DNA from: an uncultured Chlorobiales bacterium | GTDB lineage: Bacteria; Bacteroidota; Chlorobiia; Chlorobiales; Thermochlorobacteraceae | Length of the DNA stretch: 64,000 bases | Reading direction: 5' to 3' | Assembly: GCA_938003965.1 (NCBI GenBank) | Contig: CALKXI010000024.1 | Coordinates: forward strand, 6,089 to 70,088 | In this document: positions 529-7,336 of the stretch, piece by piece | Layout of the letters: every line of letters starts with the position of its first letter | Position numbering within the stretch: position 1 is the stretch's first letter | Notes under the pieces: model-generated | Told to the model about the DNA's origin: nothing | The model's database searches: none | What the model saw: the letters and a program-made list of their open reading frames with translations, nothing else | Translations under genes and position numbers: made by a program

Positions 529-969
529 ATGAAAAAGACCTTGCTTTTTATCGCTGTTGCGCTTGTTGGGATTACAAGCGTCGAGGCTCAGCCATCAGGG
601 AATTGGATGTATGTCGCCGAATCAAGCAATGCCAAGTATTTCGTCTTGAAGTCAAAGGAATCCATGACGATTAACCCGTCGGAACAAATGATGGAAATGT
701 GGGTGAAAGTTGAATTCAACCGAATCCAACCCAATGGCACGGCTTATCAGTTAGGACTGCAACGCTTTGACTTGAAGAATGATGAATTTGCCTTCCGTGA
801 AGTGATTGGATATGACGCCACGGGCAAAGTTCTTTACCATCATCGCTATGATGACGCAGACCTCAATTGGCAAACGGCAACATTGCGCAGTGTTGGTGCT
901 GAGTTACTTGCCAACGCACAAACAACTTTCACTGTGCTAATGAGCAAAGCCGTTGCAAGTGCACGCTGA
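529..969 (+). CDS. secreted protein of unknown function
   Basis: ATG ORF of 146 aa with N-terminal signal peptide MKKTLLFIAVALVGITSVEA/Q. A hairpin terminator follows. No catalytic motif recognised. Confidence 0.6.
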   Translation: MKKTLLFIAVALVGITSVEAQPSGNWMYVAESSNAKYFVLKSKESMTINPSEQMMEMWVKVEFNRIQPNGTAYQLGLQRFDLKNDEFAFREVIGYDATGKVLYHHRYDDADLNWQTATLRSVGAELLANAQTTFTVLMSKAVASAR

Positions 970-982
970 TGATTGTTGATGA

Positions 983-2203
983 TTACATTTCGGCACGAAA
1001 CAAACAAGCCCATCGTGATGATGGGCTTTTGCATTTGGCAGATGTTTCATGAAGTTTTAATGTCTGCGGGGCGTTTTTACGATGCAGGTTTACCTTGACA
1101 GGCTTCTGATGCAAGACGACTTGATTTCGCCCATTGCGCTTTGCTTCATAGAGTGCTTCGTCAGCCTGTTGAATCACTAGCGATGCCGACAGTTTTGGCA
1201 TAGGCGTTATCACATTCAGCCCTACACTGATTGTAACGACATCTGCCGTCCTTGATGCAAAATGTGGAATGTTGAGATGGCGAACCGCATCGCAGAGTTT
1301 CTCCGCCATTTTCTTTGCTTTTTCTGAATCAGAGTTTGTCAGTAACACGAGGAACTCTTCGCCGCCGTATCGCCCGACATAATCCGTTGAACGGCGAAGA
1401 ACGGTGCGAATGGCGTGCGCCACCTGCTTCAAACACATGTCGCCTGCTTGATGCCCATAAAAATCGTTATAGTTCTTAAAGTGGTCTATATCAATCATCA
1501 TCACAGCAAGAGGTTCAGCATTACGCATGGCTTTTAGCCACTCGCGTTGCAGTGTTTCGTCAATACTTCGGCGATTCGGAATGCCAGTAAGACTGTCAAT
1601 CGTAGCCAGTTGCTCTAACTGCTTTTTGGCGCGCTCCAATTCAATTAAACTTTCTTGCAACCGCTCTTCTGCTGCTCGCCGCATAGCAATTTCTTGCTGA
1701 AGTTTATTTACTCGCACAGAAAGCGCACGAACAGTTGGGTGTTCGGCATCTGCCTTTTTCAAGCGAATGAGAACATACGCTTGTTTCCCGTCGCGCACCG
1801 TGCATCCATTGAGCACAAATGGCATTATGCCTCGAGATGTCCTAAGTTCAGTTTGCTCAGAAACAAATGATGAGGAAGTGGCAGCTTTTTGTATCCAATC
1901 ATCTAACTTTGCGGAGCGGTCTACAAAAAGTGAGGAGAAGCAAGTTCCTTTAAGGTCTTCGCCTGTTGATGAAAAAATACTATGCGCGGCATTGTTGGCA
2001 AGCAAGATTACTTGATTGAGCGATACCACCAGAATCGGCTCAGGAAGCGCTTGTAAAATGTTAAGGTATATCTTCTCTGTCATTTCTAAGGGCTCACTGT
2101 TTACACTTCTCTTATCTTTCTCAAAACGAACAGTCTTGAATAAAGTCGCTACAGCGTTTGTTAGGACGTCCTGCAAACGCCTCATTCGTGTTTCAATTGA
2201 CAT
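983..2203 (-). CDS. PAS-sensor diguanylate cyclase (GGDEF domain)
   Basis: 406 aa. The C-terminal GGDEF domain has an intact RYGGEEF active site and the DSLTGIPNRR motif. A coiled-coil linker and an N-terminal PAS-like segment (LPEPILVVSLNQVILLANNAA) precede it. Confidence 0.85.
   Translation of the reverse strand: MSIETRMRRLQDVLTNAVATLFKTVRFEKDKRSVNSEPLEMTEKIYLNILQALPEPILVVSLNQVILLANNAAHSIFSSTGEDLKGTCFSSLFVDRSAKLDDWIQKAATSSSFVSEQTELRTSRGIMPFVLNGCTVRDGKQAYVLIRLKKADAEHPTVRALSVRVNKLQQEIAMRRAAEERLQESLIELERAKKQLEQLATIDSLTGIPNRRSIDETLQREWLKAMRNAEPLAVMMIDIDHFKNYNDFYGHQAGDMCLKQVAHAIRTVLRRSTDYVGRYGGEEFLVLLTNSDSEKAKKMAEKLCDAVRHLNIPHFASRTADVVTISVGLNVITPMPKLSASLVIQQADEALYEAKRNGRNQVVLHQKPVKVNLHRKNAPQTLKLHETSAKCKSPSSRWACLFRAEM
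1006..1030. terminator. hairpin terminator between convergent genes
   Basis: aagcccatc (1006-1014) pairs with gatgggctt (1020-1028), loop gtgat, followed by a T run. The reverse strand also has a T-rich tail. It overlaps the last codons of the GGDEF ORF. Confidence 0.55.
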
Positions 2204-2392
2204 GATTGGGACGAACTATACGACAATCACCGTTAATGGATTGTGACGAGGCGCATACTCACCACTTGACTTGATGCCGCTGAATTTTTATGCCCTTATG
2301 ACTGAACGAGATGGATATGCTGAAAACTGTCGGATTTGGTTATACTCGTAACGCTTTGCGTTTATCCGATTTTGGACAACATCGCGTCGTGT

Positions 2393-3874
2393 TCAGCGTT
2401 CAAACTTGGAGCCGCCCACGCTCGACATAATTTTTCCAATCATATCGCTATAAATGCGCGTGGCTTCGAGTTCATCTTTGCCTACCATTGAGTTTTGGTG
2501 CAATCCTTCCAATACAAATTCCATTGCGGTGGCGAGTTCTTGTTTGTCTTTCGTCTGGAAGGTCTTTTCGGCAAACTCGCGCAAGCCTTTGACCTTATCC
2601 AACGCTTTGAAATACTCCTCAAACTTCATGTCGTCATAGATATCGACTTGATTGCCCTGCGAGAACCAACCTGTAATCGTAGCATAAGCGCTCTGCCCTT
2701 GAACTTTCTTGTTAGGGTCGGGACAGTATTTTTTGAAGACTTGGTTAATGGCTTTGCCGATAAGCAGTTTCGCGACGTTAATAGCGCCCTCTTGTTCGCC
2801 TTCGTAGACGAGTTCAACTTTGCCTGTAATGGCAGGCACAACGAGAAACATGTCGGAAATTCGCACGCAGGCTTCGGATTCATCGTGCATGATGGCGCGA
2901 CGCTCGGCACTGCTGACAAGGTTTTCCATTGCCGTAATCGTCAGCCGCGCCGAGACGCCTGACTTTTGGTCAACGTATTCGCTCCGACGCGCTTCAAAGG
3001 CAATGTGCTCAATGATTTCTTTGAAGTAATACGGCACCTTGACTTCCACTTCGGACGGGCGTTTCGTCCATGCTTCTTGCTCTGTGATTTTAATGCCGAT
3101 TTCAATCGTTTTCGGATAGTGTGTGATGATTTGCGAGTCGATGCGGTCTTTGAGCGGCGTAATAATGTTGCCGCGATTGGTGTAATCTTCAGGGTTCGCT
3201 GAATAAATGATGAAGATATCGAGCGGAATTCTCACTTGAAAGCCACGAATTTGAATATCTTTTTCTTGCATAATGTTCAGCAAGCCGACTTGAATGCGCG
3301 GTTGAAGGTCGGGCAGTTCGTTGATGGCAAAAATGCCGCGATTGGTGCGCGGAATGATGCCGTAGTGAATCACATTTTCGTCAGCATACGTCAGTCTTTG
3401 CGATGCGGCTTTGATGGGGTCAATGTCGCCGATAAGGTCAGCGATGGTTACATCGGGCGTTGCGAGTTTTTCGCCGTAGCGTTCCGAGCGATGAAGCCAC
3501 GCAATTTCGGTTTCGTCGCCTTCATGTAAGATTTTTTCGCGCGCGTATTTTGAAATCGGATTGAACGGGTCGTCGTTGATTTCTGAGCCTTTGATGACAG
3601 GAATAAACTCATCGAGCAAATTGACCATGAGGCGAATGAGCTTAGTTTTGGCTTGCCCTCGCAGACCCAGCAGAATAATATCGTGTTTTGAAAGCAATGC
3701 GTTTTGCAGTTGCGGAATAACGGTGCGCTCGTAGCCAATAATGTTTGGAAACGGATTTTCGCCGTCCTTCATTTTTTGTATCAAGTTTTCGCGAATTTCA
3801 TCTTTCACTGAGCGCGTTCGATAACCTGCACGCTTTAATTCGCCGAGCGTTCTAATTTTCGTGATGTCTTTCAT
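2393..3874 (-). CDS. AAA+ ATPase, ChlI/MoxR-like (Mg-chelatase-related family of unknown function)
   Basis: Track ORF is 2393..3949. I prefer the start at Met26 (comp 3872..3874, MKDITKIRTLGELK) because the reconstructed Uma2 frame ends at 3894. Walker A-like GLRGQAKT and Walker B-like IFAINELPD are present, both deviant from consensus. It is paired with a vWA gene in the same operon. Confidence 0.75.
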   Translation of the reverse strand: MKDITKIRTLGELKRAGYRTRSVKDEIRENLIQKMKDGENPFPNIIGYERTVIPQLQNALLSKHDIILLGLRGQAKTKLIRLMVNLLDEFIPVIKGSEINDDPFNPISKYAREKILHEGDETEIAWLHRSERYGEKLATPDVTIADLIGDIDPIKAASQRLTYADENVIHYGIIPRTNRGIFAINELPDLQPRIQVGLLNIMQEKDIQIRGFQVRIPLDIFIIYSANPEDYTNRGNIITPLKDRIDSQIITHYPKTIEIGIKITEQEAWTKRPSEVEVKVPYYFKEIIEHIAFEARRSEYVDQKSGVSARLTITAMENLVSSAERRAIMHDESEACVRISDMFLVVPAITGKVELVYEGEQEGAINVAKLLIGKAINQVFKKYCPDPNKKVQGQSAYATITGWFSQGNQVDIYDDMKFEEYFKALDKVKGLREFAEKTFQTKDKQELATAMEFVLEGLHQNSMVGKDELEATRIYSDMIGKIMSSVGGSKFER

Positions 3875-3893
3875 AAATCGTTTGTTGTTGTGC

Positions 3894-4460
3894 TTAACTG
3901 AAAATTGTTGATAGAGGCAACACGAAGCCGTTGAGCCAGCCTTTGCCATAAAGCGTCTCTTTTTCGGTCAGGATTTCGGTTGGCGCGTCGTCAAACGAAT
4001 TGGCGTAAATGGTCAGCGTTTTTTACGCCACATCGACGAGCCAAATTTCGCCTATCCCCGCGCGTTTCCAAGTCTCGACTTTCTCTAAGGCTTCATTCAT
4101 CTTGCTCGGTTGTGAAACGACTTCTACGACAAGGTCGGGCACAACCGTTAGAAATCCTGCTTCAATTTCATTGACGCTTTTGATTTTTTCACGGCTGATG
4201 AAGGTTACATCTGCGCCGCGCACCGTGTCGGGATTGCGTTCCAGATACACACCTGTTTCCGCCGTGAAAACGAAGCCAAGATTTCTTGCTTTTACAAAAT
4301 TTCTTATCTGTGTTAAAATTTCATTTGCGATATATCCGTGTTTTCCGCCTGCGGGCATCGTTTCAATGGGCTTACCTTCGAGGCGTTCGAGTCGTTTCCT
4401 CGTCGCGCTTTGCAGTTCCATTCAGTCTTCGCCCGTAAGCAATTTTTCCGCTGCTGTCAT
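3894..4460 (-). pseudogene. Uma2-family (DUF820) PD-(D/E)xK endonuclease frame with two in-frame stop codons
   Basis: Track ORF 4023..4421 (132 aa) carries Uma2 hallmarks (GADVTFIS, VPDLVVEVVS, EIWLVDVA). In the same frame, upstream is GGGAG-N6-ATG (4460) MTAAEKLLTGED, then TGA (4422-4424), then ATG (4421). Downstream of TAA (4023-4025) the frame continues KTLTIYANSFDDAPTEILTEKETLYGKGWLNGFVLPLSTIFS to TAA (3894-3896). This is the usual Uma2 C-terminus. Confidence 0.7.
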
Positions 4461-4471
4461 TTCTTACTCCC

Positions 4472-5572
4472 TCATCGCAGTTTTTTGCGGCGATTTTTGA
4501 TGTAATCGACAAACATATATTCGCCCAAGTTATCTAACCCACTGAAATACGCCCGTCCTTGATTGGCTTGTGTTAGTTCATTGACAAAGCCTTGCAAATA
4601 AGGGTCGCTCGTTACCATAAAGGTGGTAATGGTGATTTTATCTTTGCGACACATGACGGCTTCGTCGAGCGTTTTATTCACGATTTTTCTATCTAACCCA
4701 AACGAGTTTTTGTAAATCTTCGCGCCTTCATTGATGGCGGAAGGTTTGCCGTCCGTAATCATGAAAATTTGTTTGTTTTGATTTTTCTTGCGCTTCAAGA
4801 TTTGACGTGCGAGCGCAAGCCCTGCTTTGGTGTTGGTGTGATAGGGTCCGACGCTGATGAACGGCAAATCTTTGACTTCCACCTGCCATGCTTCGTCGCC
4901 AAAGAGCAAGATGTCAAGGCTATCTTTGGGGTAGCGCGTCAAGATGAGCTCTGAGAGTGCCATCGCAACTTTCTTTGCGGGCGTGATGCGGTCTTCGCCG
5001 TAAAGAATCATTGAGTGCGAAACATCAATCATTAACACAGTGGCACAGGTCGTTTGATGCTCAGTTTCATAGACGCGAAAATCATCTTCGGCAAGGCGAA
5101 TTTCGTCTAAATCACTGTGTTTGAGTGCGTTTTGAAGCGTTTGCGTGAGGTCAAGATTTTGAAGCGTGTCGCCAAATTTCCAATTGCGCGTCTCGGGCGT
5201 GCGCTCTTCCGACATTCCCGACTTTGGAATTTTATGATTGCCAAACTGCGACTGCTTGCGAAGTGAGGAAAAAATTTCGTTGAGCGATTCTTCGCGAATT
5301 TTTTTCGTCGTCTTGCCTGTGATGTTGAACGTGCCATCTCGCGAAGGTTCTTCAAGATAGCCTTCGCGTTTTAGGTATTCGATGAAATCGCCAATGCCGA
5401 CTTCGTCGTCGCCTAAGCCGTATTGTCGGTCCATTTCTGTGAGCCATTGCAAGGCTTGATTGGCGTCGCCGTTTGTGTAAATCAAGAGTTGATTAAACAC
5501 TTTGAGCATCTTTTCAAGCGAAGATTGCGTTTTGGCGTGCCGCTCGTCCCATTTAGAAAATCGATAGTCCAT
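4472..5572 (-). CDS. von Willebrand factor type A (vWA/MIDAS) domain protein, partner of the AAA+ ATPase
   Basis: 366 aa. MIDAS motif DxSxS is seen as MIDVSHSM, followed by typical vWA strands (IFMITDGKPS). The N-terminal helical region has no recognised motif. Confidence 0.8.
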   Translation of the reverse strand: MDYRFSKWDERHAKTQSSLEKMLKVFNQLLIYTNGDANQALQWLTEMDRQYGLGDDEVGIGDFIEYLKREGYLEEPSRDGTFNITGKTTKKIREESLNEIFSSLRKQSQFGNHKIPKSGMSEERTPETRNWKFGDTLQNLDLTQTLQNALKHSDLDEIRLAEDDFRVYETEHQTTCATVLMIDVSHSMILYGEDRITPAKKVAMALSELILTRYPKDSLDILLFGDEAWQVEVKDLPFISVGPYHTNTKAGLALARQILKRKKNQNKQIFMITDGKPSAINEGAKIYKNSFGLDRKIVNKTLDEAVMCRKDKITITTFMVTSDPYLQGFVNELTQANQGRAYFSGLDNLGEYMFVDYIKNRRKKLR

Positions 5573-5829
5573 ATTTTCAGCGTGAATTGAGGTCGGTTAT
5601 GCAAGTCAGAAACAGTTGAAAGTAAGAAAAAATTTGATACGGCAAACAGAAGAATTCCAGTTTAGAGCGAGAGGAGAAATTCGGTCAAGTTTGTTTTTTG
5701 GGGAAGCCCAAGTTTGCGGCGAAGGTGCAAGCGTGGTGTAGGCTTTGGCGGTAAGAATCGGCGCATTGATGGTTTGCGCCCCTTCAAGCGACTCGTAGCC
5801 GAAGTGAGGCATTTCTCGGCAAAGGCTCG

Positions 5830-6042
5830 GTGAAAATTGTCAATGATACCAAACAAGATATTCACATCTACACAGGCACAGGACATGTGAAACTCAATCA
5901 TGGTGGCGGCTCGACTTCTGTCTCTTGTGAAAACGGCAAAGAAATTTGCCTGAGCAATAAGGGCAAGAAAGGCGGGGTCATCTTCAAAATTGATGCGTCC
6001 ATGTGTGGCAAGACCGTCAAATTGTCGTCTTACCTGAAATAG
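5830..6042 (+). CDS. small hypothetical protein (70 aa, GTG start)
   Basis: This is the only plus-strand ORF in a 570-bp gap. It is followed about 65 nt later by a plus-strand hairpin plus T-run terminator. No family recognised. Confidence 0.35.
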   Translation: MKIVNDTKQDIHIYTGTGHVKLNHGGGSTSVSCENGKEICLSNKGKKGGVIFKIDASMCGKTVKLSSYLK

Positions 6043-6106
6043 TTTTTTTTCGCGACCGTTCTTTGTCTTTCTCGCTGGTTGTTGTTCTTTGTTGTCTCTT
6101 AGGTGA

Positions 6107-6144
6107 GGAGCGTCTCTGCTGGAAACGGCGGGACGCTCTTTTTT
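6107..6144 (+). terminator. rho-independent terminator
   Basis: gagcgtc (6108-6114) pairs with gacgctc (6132-6138), followed by tttttt (6139-6144). The T run is on the plus strand only. It overlaps the stop of xseA on the other strand. Confidence 0.6.
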
Positions 6145-7336
6145 ACACTACGCGCATTGTTTTTTCGCCGTCCGCAAAGCGAATAACGACTTTATCGCCC
6201 GATTGAATTTCCTGTGCGGAGCGAACCACATGTCCATCTTTGAACACGATGCTGAATCCGCGCCGAAGCGTTTGTTCGTAGCTTAGCGCGTCGAGGCGGT
6301 GCGTCAAGTTTGAGAGCATTGAGGCTGTGCGTTCTATTTTTTGCCGCATGCCGAAATCGAGCCGCTCGCTTAATCGGTCGAGGGTTTGCAGGAGCGTGTG
6401 CATATCGCTGACCGGCTTATTAAAGGCATAACTTCCAACAAGTTCTCTAACAAATGCGCGTTGCTCTTCCACGCGGTTCATCAAGTCGCGTTGCGTGGCT
6501 TGAAGCGTTGCATGAATTGCGTTCAGAATATCTGTTGAAAGCGGGGCAACAAGTTCTGCCGCCATTGAAGGCGTTGCGGCACGAACATCAGCGACGAAAT
6601 CGCAAATCGTGAAGTCGGTTTGATGCCCAACGGCGCTCACCGTCGGAATTTTTGACGCAAACACGGCACGCGCCACACGTTCATCGTTGAACGCCCACAA
6701 GTCCTCGAGCGAGCCGCCACCCCGCCCGATAATGAGCACATCGACTTGGTGCGCAGGATTTTTCGTGCGATTGAAATACCGAATCGCCTCGACGATTTCT
6801 TCGGGCGCACCTTCGCCTTGAACGCGCACAGGGTAAAGCACAATTTGCGCTGATGGGTATCGCCGTCCCAACACCGAACAAATATCTTGAATCACTGCGC
6901 CTGTTGGCGAAGTAACCACGCCAATCGCTTCAGGTAAGCGCGGCAAGGGCTTTTTGTGCTCGTGCAGAAATAATCCTTCTTTCTCCAACTTTTTAACTAA
7001 CAGTTCAAAGGCTTTTTGCAAATCGCCTTCACCGACGGCTTTGACTTGATTGCCAATGAGTTGATACTTGCCCTGCGGCGCATAGACTTCAACCCTGCCG
7101 CGAATGAGCACTTCAAGCCCATCGCTTAACGCAAACGGAAGTCGCTCGGCGGTCGTGCGCCAAATGACGGCTGGAATTTGCGCCTCTGAATCTTTGAGTG
7201 TGAAGTAAAGATGCCCCGATGTGGCTCTCTTGAAATTTGAAATTTCACCCCGAAGCCACAGTTCAGGAAATTGCGTTTCGAGATGTTCTTTAATTTCCGC
7301 CGTGAGTTCGCTAACTGAATAAATGCCGTCTGCCAC
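6143..7336 (-). CDS. xseA: exodeoxyribonuclease VII large subunit
   Basis: 397 aa. The N-terminal OB-fold signature is YSVSELTAEIKEHLETQFPELWLRGEISNFKRATSGHLYFTLKD. The central catalytic region and C-terminal coiled coil are typical of XseA. Confidence 0.9.
   Translation of the reverse strand: MADGIYSVSELTAEIKEHLETQFPELWLRGEISNFKRATSGHLYFTLKDSEAQIPAVIWRTTAERLPFALSDGLEVLIRGRVEVYAPQGKYQLIGNQVKAVGEGDLQKAFELLVKKLEKEGLFLHEHKKPLPRLPEAIGVVTSPTGAVIQDICSVLGRRYPSAQIVLYPVRVQGEGAPEEIVEAIRYFNRTKNPAHQVDVLIIGRGGGSLEDLWAFNDERVARAVFASKIPTVSAVGHQTDFTICDFVADVRAATPSMAAELVAPLSTDILNAIHATLQATQRDLMNRVEEQRAFVRELVGSYAFNKPVSDMHTLLQTLDRLSERLDFGMRQKIERTASMLSNLTHRLDALSYEQTLRRGFSIVFKDGHVVRSAQEIQSGDKVVIRFADGEKTMRVV

Follow-up and report, generated by a model that had tools for sequence, protein, structure and literature searches.

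The window analyzed here, a 64,000-nucleotide stretch of contig CALKXI010000024.1 from an uncultured Chlorobiales bacterium, carries on its minus strand a string of three tightly packed genes. The first encodes a vWA protein with a metal ion-dependent adhesion site (MIDAS), the second is a Uma2-family frame of the PD-(D/E)xK nuclease type, and the third encodes a ChlI-like AAA+ ATPase. This string is probably a housekeeping-like ATPase/vWA chaperone pair together with a lineage-specific, dispensable Uma2 gene that rides on the operon and is broken in this genome.

An earlier note on this DNA had described three co-directional genes with spacers of 11 and 19 nt, and all of the elements it named are present. 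The vWA gene (5572..4472, minus strand, as for all features of the string) comes first and encodes 366 aa, as an open reading frame (ORF) with a Pfam VWA_2 match at E=1.9e-9. Directly after its TGA stop lies the 11-nt spacer (4461..4471), GGGAGTAAGAA, which contains the Shine-Dalgarno-like GGGAG that the note had read as the ribosome-binding site of the Uma2 frame. The Uma2 pseudogene (4460..3894) spans 188 codons plus a stop, with two in-frame stops and no frameshift, and the second spacer (3875..3893) separates it from the start of the ATPase gene (3874..2393). The 518-aa ATPase ORF in the original ORF list starts at an upstream ATG within the Uma2 tail; the gene itself encodes 493 aa.

On the reading we favor, the core of the locus would be a two-gene, co-transcribed module of the chaperone type, in which the ChlI-like AAA+ protein, presumably a hexameric ring, works with the MIDAS vWA protein as its adaptor. 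By analogy with BchI/BchD, CbbQ/CbbO, NorQ/NorD and RavA/ViaA, a client protein would be held by the MIDAS through one of its acidic residues and would be remodeled or released as the ring turns over ATP. Uma2 would not be part of this machine. It would be an accessory gene that took up residence between the two genes of the pair in the ancestor of a hot-spring Chloroherpetonaceae clade, that rides on the transcription of the operon, and that purifying selection kept in many lineages, sometimes as a tandem pair. Such a gene may be useful or addictive enough for upkeep, yet it has been repeatedly deleted or inactivated and is thus dispensable.

The ATPase/vWA pair

The pair is widespread. A word-index search with the ATPase returned more than 8000 matches, with about 65% identity between Chlorobiales, Rhodothermales, Balneolales and Bacteroidota, and the homologs with E<1e-30 form 727 clusters at 50% identity. 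Linked ATPase and vWA genes are found in Bacteroidota, Ignavibacteria, Rhodothermales, Acidobacteriota, Actinomycetota (the Rv0958/Rv0959 type) and Thermomicrobiota. By tblastn, the ATPase also occurs in Thermomicrobium and Actinomycetota, where a vWA protein of ~660-700 aa is encoded directly after it, as in the Rv0958/Rv0959 arrangement.

We assessed linkage in 145 ATPase-centered loci outside the window's clade and counted neighbors in 166 loci. A vWA gene lies within the flank of 81 of the 145, always co-directional with the ATPase gene; the order is vWA then ATPase in 55 and ATPase then vWA in 26. No vWA gene is nearby in 31 outside-clade loci that have at least 3 kb on both sides. The gap between the two genes is 300 nt or less, with no room for an insert, in 61 of the 81 pairs, and something stands between them in 18. 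No third gene is conserved, and no other neighbor is common to more than 20 of the 166 loci. The survey of orthologous neighborhoods that the earlier note had proposed therefore does find genes inserted between the two partners, but neither in most pairs nor in the form of a conserved effector.

Among relatives within the clade, the ratio of nonsynonymous to synonymous divergence (dN/dS) of the vWA and ATPase genes is 0.01-0.09 (0.01-0.08 for vWA), at a synonymous divergence (dS) of 0.6-2.1. Constraint on the pair is that of a core gene. The proteins of the window and three relatives (loci L081, L088 and L089) are 97-99% identical, but dS between the underlying genes is 0.6-1.0, so these four lineages are far more diverged than amino-acid identity would suggest. 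The ATPase is absent from 50,697 phage records, and the only plasmid records that hold it are four non-mobilizable replicons of 0.4-11.9 Mb. On these grounds we rejected the possibility that the pair is mobile-element cargo. The earlier note had also called for a defense-system predictor. PADLOC-DB v2 contains no model that matches the vWA protein, and the ATPase gives only a 14-bit match to RtcR/PspF2; Uma2 alone matches a single-gene candidate, PDC-S03.

The note had stated that this ATPase/vWA family has no established function, and we find the same: no NCBIfam equivalog matches the family, and the literature on its uncharacterized members Rv0958 and Rv0959 consists of incidental mentions, with nothing on function. 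The M. smegmatis protein MSMEG_5512 was picked up in an affinity purification-mass spectrometry screen targeted at RNA polymerase, and a follow-up assay detected no DNA association (PMC7092591).

Translation confirms that both Walker motifs of the ATPase are deviant, as had been noted. Walker A reads GLRGQAKT (residues 70-77, 3667..3644) and Walker B reads FAINE (residues 182-186, 3331..3317), with Asn instead of the canonical Asp. The family consensus, a P-loop of the form GxxGQ[AG]K[ST] with Walker B hhhNE, is kept in 18 homologs at 63-98% identity and in 15 further homologs down to 35% identity, with one DE exception. Down to that same identity, N185 is at least 90% conserved and E186 is invariant. 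FAINE aligns to the DE of ChlI, the Asn standing opposite the ChlI Asp. Alignment to ChlI also shows that the protein has kept sensor 1 (SANPE), the arginine finger (LKDRID) and sensor 2 (SGVSARLT). Judged from these alignments, the deviant P-loop and Walker B are fixed characters of the whole family and not decay. Since the variants are family-wide and the active site is otherwise complete, the protein is predicted to be a functional ATPase rather than a dead one; it would be active, perhaps slow or switch-like.

Pfam gives the ATPase only weak matches (Sigma54_activat, AAA_5, AAA_3 and Mg_chelatase), and its best sequence matches among solved structures are ChlI structures, 8osf (E=8.6e-9) and 6l8d. 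An AlphaFold2 model built on an 18-sequence alignment has a mean pLDDT (predicted local distance difference test) of 69, with residues 134-252 of the core below 50. A Foldseek search of this model against the PDB returned no match at E≤1e-3, and the top, non-significant hits included RavA and the MoxR protein CHU_0153. The poor model and its Foldseek hits weakly suggest a ChlI/MoxR-like fold. Public names for the family vary between 'magnesium chelatase subunit I', 'sigma 54-interacting transcriptional regulator' and 'AAA family ATPase', of which the first two appear to be mislabels, unsupported by equivalog or domain tests. We rejected a true Mg-chelatase on BchI/BchD equivalog scores of ~25 bits against cut-offs of 467-500. 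A sigma-54 activator was rejected as well: the sole match is one of 22.7 bits to part of the AAA core, and Pfam finds no helix-turn-helix or receiver domain.

In the vWA protein, the MIDAS motif DVSHSM (residues 183-188, 5026..5009) is likewise read from the translation. Across 85 homologs, conservation of the MIDAS residues (DxSxS, the Thr of GPYHTNT and the Asp of ITDGKP) is 98% or higher. A 97%-identical ortholog carries precomputed Pfam annotations for Rv0959_3rd and VWA_2; the former is taken from the annotation of that ortholog, and the Pfam copy that we searched, which has no such model, finds no domain beyond VWA_2 in the 366-aa protein of the window. A PDB sequence search with the vWA protein returned nothing meaningful. 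The partnership logic of AAA+ plus vWA, which the earlier note had recognized, holds.

The Uma2 gene and its history

The 132-aa part of the Uma2 frame scores 90.6 bits against Pfam Uma2 (PF05685; cut-off 27), and the tail past the second stop also matches a Uma2 hidden Markov model (HMM) built in this analysis. The window copy is 54-80% identical to intact orthologs of 184-187 aa at the same site in relatives. The function of the Uma2 family is unknown, and its endonuclease activity is only predicted (PMC3424549). That the frame is interrupted had been seen before, and two in-frame stops account for it: a TGA at codon 13 (4424..4422), where intact orthologs have Leu, and a TAA at codon 146 (4025..4023), where they have CAA (Gln), so that a single C-to-T change explains the latter. 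The window copy is a recently killed pseudogene. An HMM search of the 64-kb window found no other Uma2.

One might suppose that Uma2 still functions in this genome, either because the stops are assembly errors or are read through, or because the 132-aa ORF between them is an active truncated protein. The frame is indeed otherwise intact, with an ATG directly after the first stop, and the dN/dS of the window copy against intact orthologs (0.15-0.26) lies within the range of intact copies and is no higher than that of intact copies against each other. However, a protein identical to the product of this 132-aa ORF (P0290) occurs in each of three public sources, the NCBI, Logan and ENA assemblies, so the stops are real and not a read error. 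Read-through of a TGA plus a TAA is unlikely, and a truncated product would lack the last ~42 residues, which are conserved in all intact copies. The gene has, moreover, decayed independently in other strains, by frameshifts in L100 and by deletions in L081 and L092. We regard a working Uma2 in this genome as highly improbable.

The history of the insert can be followed in Chloroherpetonaceae-like hot-spring relatives, whose ATPases are 87-98% identical to that of the window. The spacer holds two intact tandem Uma2 genes in L084/85/99, L088, L090/91 and L167-170, a single intact gene in L089 and L171-177, and a frameshifted one in L100. It lacks Uma2 in L081-83, where it measures 89 nt, in L092, and in L093-101, where it measures 300-375 nt. 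In the spacers of L093 (4626-5001), L094 (2740-3094) and L101 (4694-5001), at 88-89% identity, we observed no ORF and no Uma2 HMM match; a relic, a regulatory RNA or a promoter may account for these stretches. Remnants of Uma2 persist in the spacers of L081 and L092, which can be aligned to the 3' end of the window copy; this indicates that the Uma2-less state arose by deletion, and the 19 nt ahead of the ATPase are kept even in these relatives.

A neighbor-joining tree of the concatenated vWA and ATPase sequences places the Uma2-less lineages inside Uma2-bearing ones. This nesting implies at least three losses, two pseudogenizations and at least two duplications or homogenizations of Uma2. 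A deeper relative, at 75% ATPase identity, has the pair with a 30-nt spacer and no Uma2; another, at 80% ATPase identity, has no Uma2 and no vWA gene within 3.5 kb of its ATPase. The dS of Uma2 (0.56-3.2) is in most pairs close to that of the flanks, with dN/dS of 0.13-0.37. Thus Uma2 has descended together with its flanks at this site, and purifying selection has maintained the intact copies. The insert is ancestral to one hot-spring Chloroherpetonaceae clade, and it is dispensable. As the alternative to an unusual operon, the earlier note had envisaged orthologous pairs that are always adjacent with no effector and a chance Uma2 insertion unique to this genome. The first part holds for most orthologous pairs, but we rejected a chance insertion unique to this genome, since Uma2 stands at the same site clade-wide, under purifying selection though often lost. 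In keeping with a passenger, the next-closest Uma2 genes, at 46% identity or less, are tightly packed in unrelated housekeeping strings of other phyla.

In the Uma2 copies of the clade, one helix (window 4260-4330, residues ~45-66) comes in two sharply distinct versions, YIANE..T..RNFVKA (type A) and YIASKIERKLGAFIEE (type B). The tandem of L088 (2556-3726) runs from A to B. Type A is found in the window, L100 and L090, and type B in L089 (4401-5001), L091, L171 and L172. This distribution looks like an ancestral tandem A+B pair that underwent differential loss or gene conversion, and the helix is possibly a specificity determinant. In L090 (3823-5001) the tandem copies are mutually identical (A,A), as are those of L091 (3823-5001; B,B), and the two contigs differ almost only in the helix segment. 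Either concerted evolution or a metagenome assembly artifact could produce such identical tandems. A third, divergent Uma2 gene of 231 aa with a C-terminal coiled-coil-like tail lies in L084 (8136-8831, minus strand), ~650 nt downstream of the ATPase gene and on the opposite strand, where it adjoins a 190-aa gene with no Pfam match.

Occupants of the spacer in other lineages

The genes found between the two partners outside the clade are diverse. The spacer of L073 holds an independent intact Uma2 gene (32% identical), and that of L065 holds a PDDEXK_3/GxxExxY gene. Genes for a 23S_rRNA_IVP protein, an Avd-like four-helix bundle of 122-126 aa, occupy the spacer in lineages with the ATPase-then-vWA order (L118:6597-6977, L119:6609-6980, L128:2970-3338 and L136:5528-5896), and another lineage with this order has a degraded copy in two frames (L130:4904-5322). 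Two cassettes of the ParE-toxin type are present in L005 (5969-7489). Between them lies a hybrid ORF (6557-6925), vWA-like at its N-terminus and ATPase-like at its C-terminus, which looks as though insertion had duplicated the junction of the two genes. Other occupants include a metallo-beta-lactamase (MBL) hydrolase, with or without a flavin reductase, in some Bacteroidota (L014:7536-8189, L117:1918-3196, L121:6546-7836 and L122), an HpcH/HpaI aldolase in some Acidobacteriota (L049, L051 and L071), an M23 peptidase (L001) and ORFs without a family (L027 and L041). An MBL-fold gene cluster also recurs in 19 of the 166 loci. The three small promiscuous families have homologs at other positions in the flanks as well (L043, L084c, L042, L023 and L105/108).

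The earlier note had raised the idea of a defense triad. In its functional form, the vWA and AAA+ proteins would act as sensor and regulator and Uma2 as the nuclease effector of a minimal conflict (defense or abortive-infection) module that has decayed in this genome. The tight packing of the genes, all co-directional with spacers of 8-33 nt, would fit such a module, but ~75% of outside-clade pairs have no room for a third gene and none is conserved. Retention of Uma2 across the clade under purifying selection also speaks for a triad, as does the restriction of this subfamily to the locus; yet Uma2 was lost at least three times and pseudogenized twice while the pair stayed intact. Variation in copy number, tandem duplication and two sharply different helix alleles are typical of conflict genes, whereas the pair evolves as a core gene and is found neither in phages nor on mobile elements. 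The spacers of L073 and L065 contain independent PD-(D/E)xK genes, but those of other lineages contain genes that are not nucleases. The PADLOC candidate is matched by Uma2 and not by the pair, and none of the third components that define the MoxR-vWA ternary systems is present. We consider a functional triad unlikely.

Alternatively, small selfish ORFs (Uma2, PDDEXK_3/GxxExxY, 23S_rRNA_IVP and toxin-antitoxin cassettes) could land preferentially in the spacer, where insertion is tolerated and expression guaranteed, and Uma2 would persist for its own benefit, for example by addiction. Unrelated small ORFs do recur at the spacer in at least five lineages, and the degraded 23S_rRNA_IVP gene of L130 and the degraded Uma2 genes of the window and L100 show turnover. 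Expansions of Uma2 have also been documented in hot-spring cyanobacteria (PMC9403480), although the 64 kb of the window hold only one copy. The loci examined showed no insertion mechanism, target repeat or mobility gene, and the Uma2 copies were inherited vertically rather than re-inserted repeatedly, since their dS matches that of the flanks. This explanation largely overlaps the one we favor and differs only in who benefits; in this distinct form it is quite unlikely.

A more speculative scenario, to which we give little credence, is that the pair is a general chaperone or licensing device for any small protein encoded in the spacer (Uma2, PDDEXK_3, 23S_rRNA_IVP/Avd-like or ParE). The locus would then belong to a so far unrecognized modular conflict system of a pair plus swappable cargo, in which the Uma2 tandem of the clade, with two alleles of the helix, would serve as an effector that diversifies specificity.

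Several observations weigh against the favored explanation, a housekeeping-like pair with a dispensable Uma2 rider. Two other lineages, L073 and L065, have independently come to hold PD-(D/E)xK genes in the spacer. About 4 of 9 independent small-ORF events in the sampled loci fall in this spacer, against ~1 in 10 expected (binomial p ~0.01, a rough, post hoc and hand-computed value), and this excess hints at a site that is permissive or preferred, though it is no proof. The Uma2 subfamily is restricted to this locus: all six close clusters that we examined, with homologs at 66-95% identity, occur only in this spacer, and their upstream neighbors differ. Retention of Uma2 over saturated synonymous divergence exceeds the needs of a random hitch-hiker. 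Finally, the AlphaFold2 model is poor in the ATPase core.

The surroundings of the string are housekeeping, as the earlier note had said. The upstream flank contains xseA, cysS, a gene for a UDP-glucose-type dehydrogenase, hemE and genes for ATP synthase subunits, and the downstream flank contains a PAS-GGDEF gene. An Rfam scan of positions 2000-6200 matched no RNA family, and the GC profile shows no compositional break or anomaly at the Uma2 segment. Promoter and terminator scans gave matches not above shuffled expectation and are therefore uninformative on the boundaries of the operon. A 70-aa Gly/Lys-rich ORF with no Pfam match lies between the vWA gene and xseA (5830-6042, plus strand). 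Farther away, a 146-aa ORF with a signal-peptide-like N-terminus and no Pfam match (529-969, plus strand) has a gene of the same length at the syntenic position of L081.

On the explanation we favor, the locus itself is ordinary. The ATPase/vWA family ranks among the more tightly constrained 'conserved unknowns'. It extends over Bacteroidota, Chlorobiota, Acidobacteriota, Thermomicrobiota and Actinomycetota, the M. tuberculosis Rv0958/Rv0959 type included, has a fixed Asn-Glu Walker B, and is apparently mislabeled in public databases as a Mg-chelatase or a sigma-54 regulator. With zero, one and two copies, relics and pseudogenes, the clade also forms a clean natural series in which the maintenance and decay of Uma2 genes within operons can be followed. 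That unrelated small 'promiscuous' ORFs have come to occupy one spacer time and again hints that hitch-hiking on operons may be a general habit of these families.

Comparison with known systems

The window frame is a clear member of the Uma2/DUF820/TT1808 family (PF05685) and, like other members, it is tight and co-directional within a string of unrelated genes. Unlike them, this subfamily occurs only at a single chromosomal site, within a single clade and often in tandem, and the window copy is a pseudogene. The MoxR-vWA ternary conflict systems share with the window an AAA+ plus vWA core accompanied by a third gene. In those systems the third component is VMAP, iSTAND, FtsH or a beta-propeller fused to vWA, and variable effector domains are placed C-terminally on the vWA component, with high sequence variability (PMC7159879; Kaur et al., 2020). 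The window, in contrast, has no VMAP, iSTAND, FtsH or beta-propeller, and its only third gene is Uma2, an addition that most members of the pair family lack. Its vWA protein has no fused effector domains, and the variability of the core is very low.

The MoxR-family AAA+/vWA pairs RavA-ViaA, CbbQ-CbbO, NorQ-NorD and CoxD-CoxE are, like the pair described here, two-gene AAA+ plus vWA modules, and they mature or remodel a client complex. They differ in that the window ATPase scores 20.5 bits against Pfam AAA_3 (MoxR), under the cut-off of 27, and is matched better by ChlI, and in that no client gene is linked to the window's pair family among the neighbors across the 166 loci. With the Mg-chelatase pairs BchI/ChlI and BchD/ChlD, the window pair shares the logic of an AAA+ protein plus a vWA/MIDAS partner, and sensor 1, the Arg finger and sensor 2 align. 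However, the window ATPase scores 24.8 bits against both TIGR02030 (cut-off 466.95) and TIGR02031 (cut-off 499.55), has NE rather than DE in Walker B, and carries an extra C-terminal region of ~220 aa. The vWA protein matches only TIGR02442 (31 bits; cut-off 779) and lacks an AAA-like N-domain, and there is no BchH-like neighbor.

The closest counterpart is the Rv0958/Rv0959 pair of Actinomycetota, annotated as a 'possible magnesium chelatase' and a vWA protein, with a function that is equally unestablished. The window ATPase is 41-45% identical to the Tsukamurella, Nocardia and Nonomuraea genes (E of 1e-101 to 1e-110, 87-95% coverage), and the ortholog of the window vWA protein carries the Pfam domain Rv0959_3rd. 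In Tsukamurella, the ATPase gene (43% identity, E=6e-101) lies ~3 kb downstream of purH, four genes after it, with the vWA gene directly next; in M. tuberculosis, Rv0958 presumably adjoins purH. The actinobacterial and Thermomicrobium vWA proteins differ from that of the window in their length (~660-700 aa against 366 aa) and in being encoded downstream of the ATPase rather than upstream. We define the type by an ATPase of ~460-510 aa with a GxxGQ[AG]K[ST] P-loop and an hhhNE Walker B. By its P-loop and Walker B, its co-directional MIDAS vWA gene and its full-length similarity, the window pair is classed at the sequence level as Rv0958/Rv0959-type.

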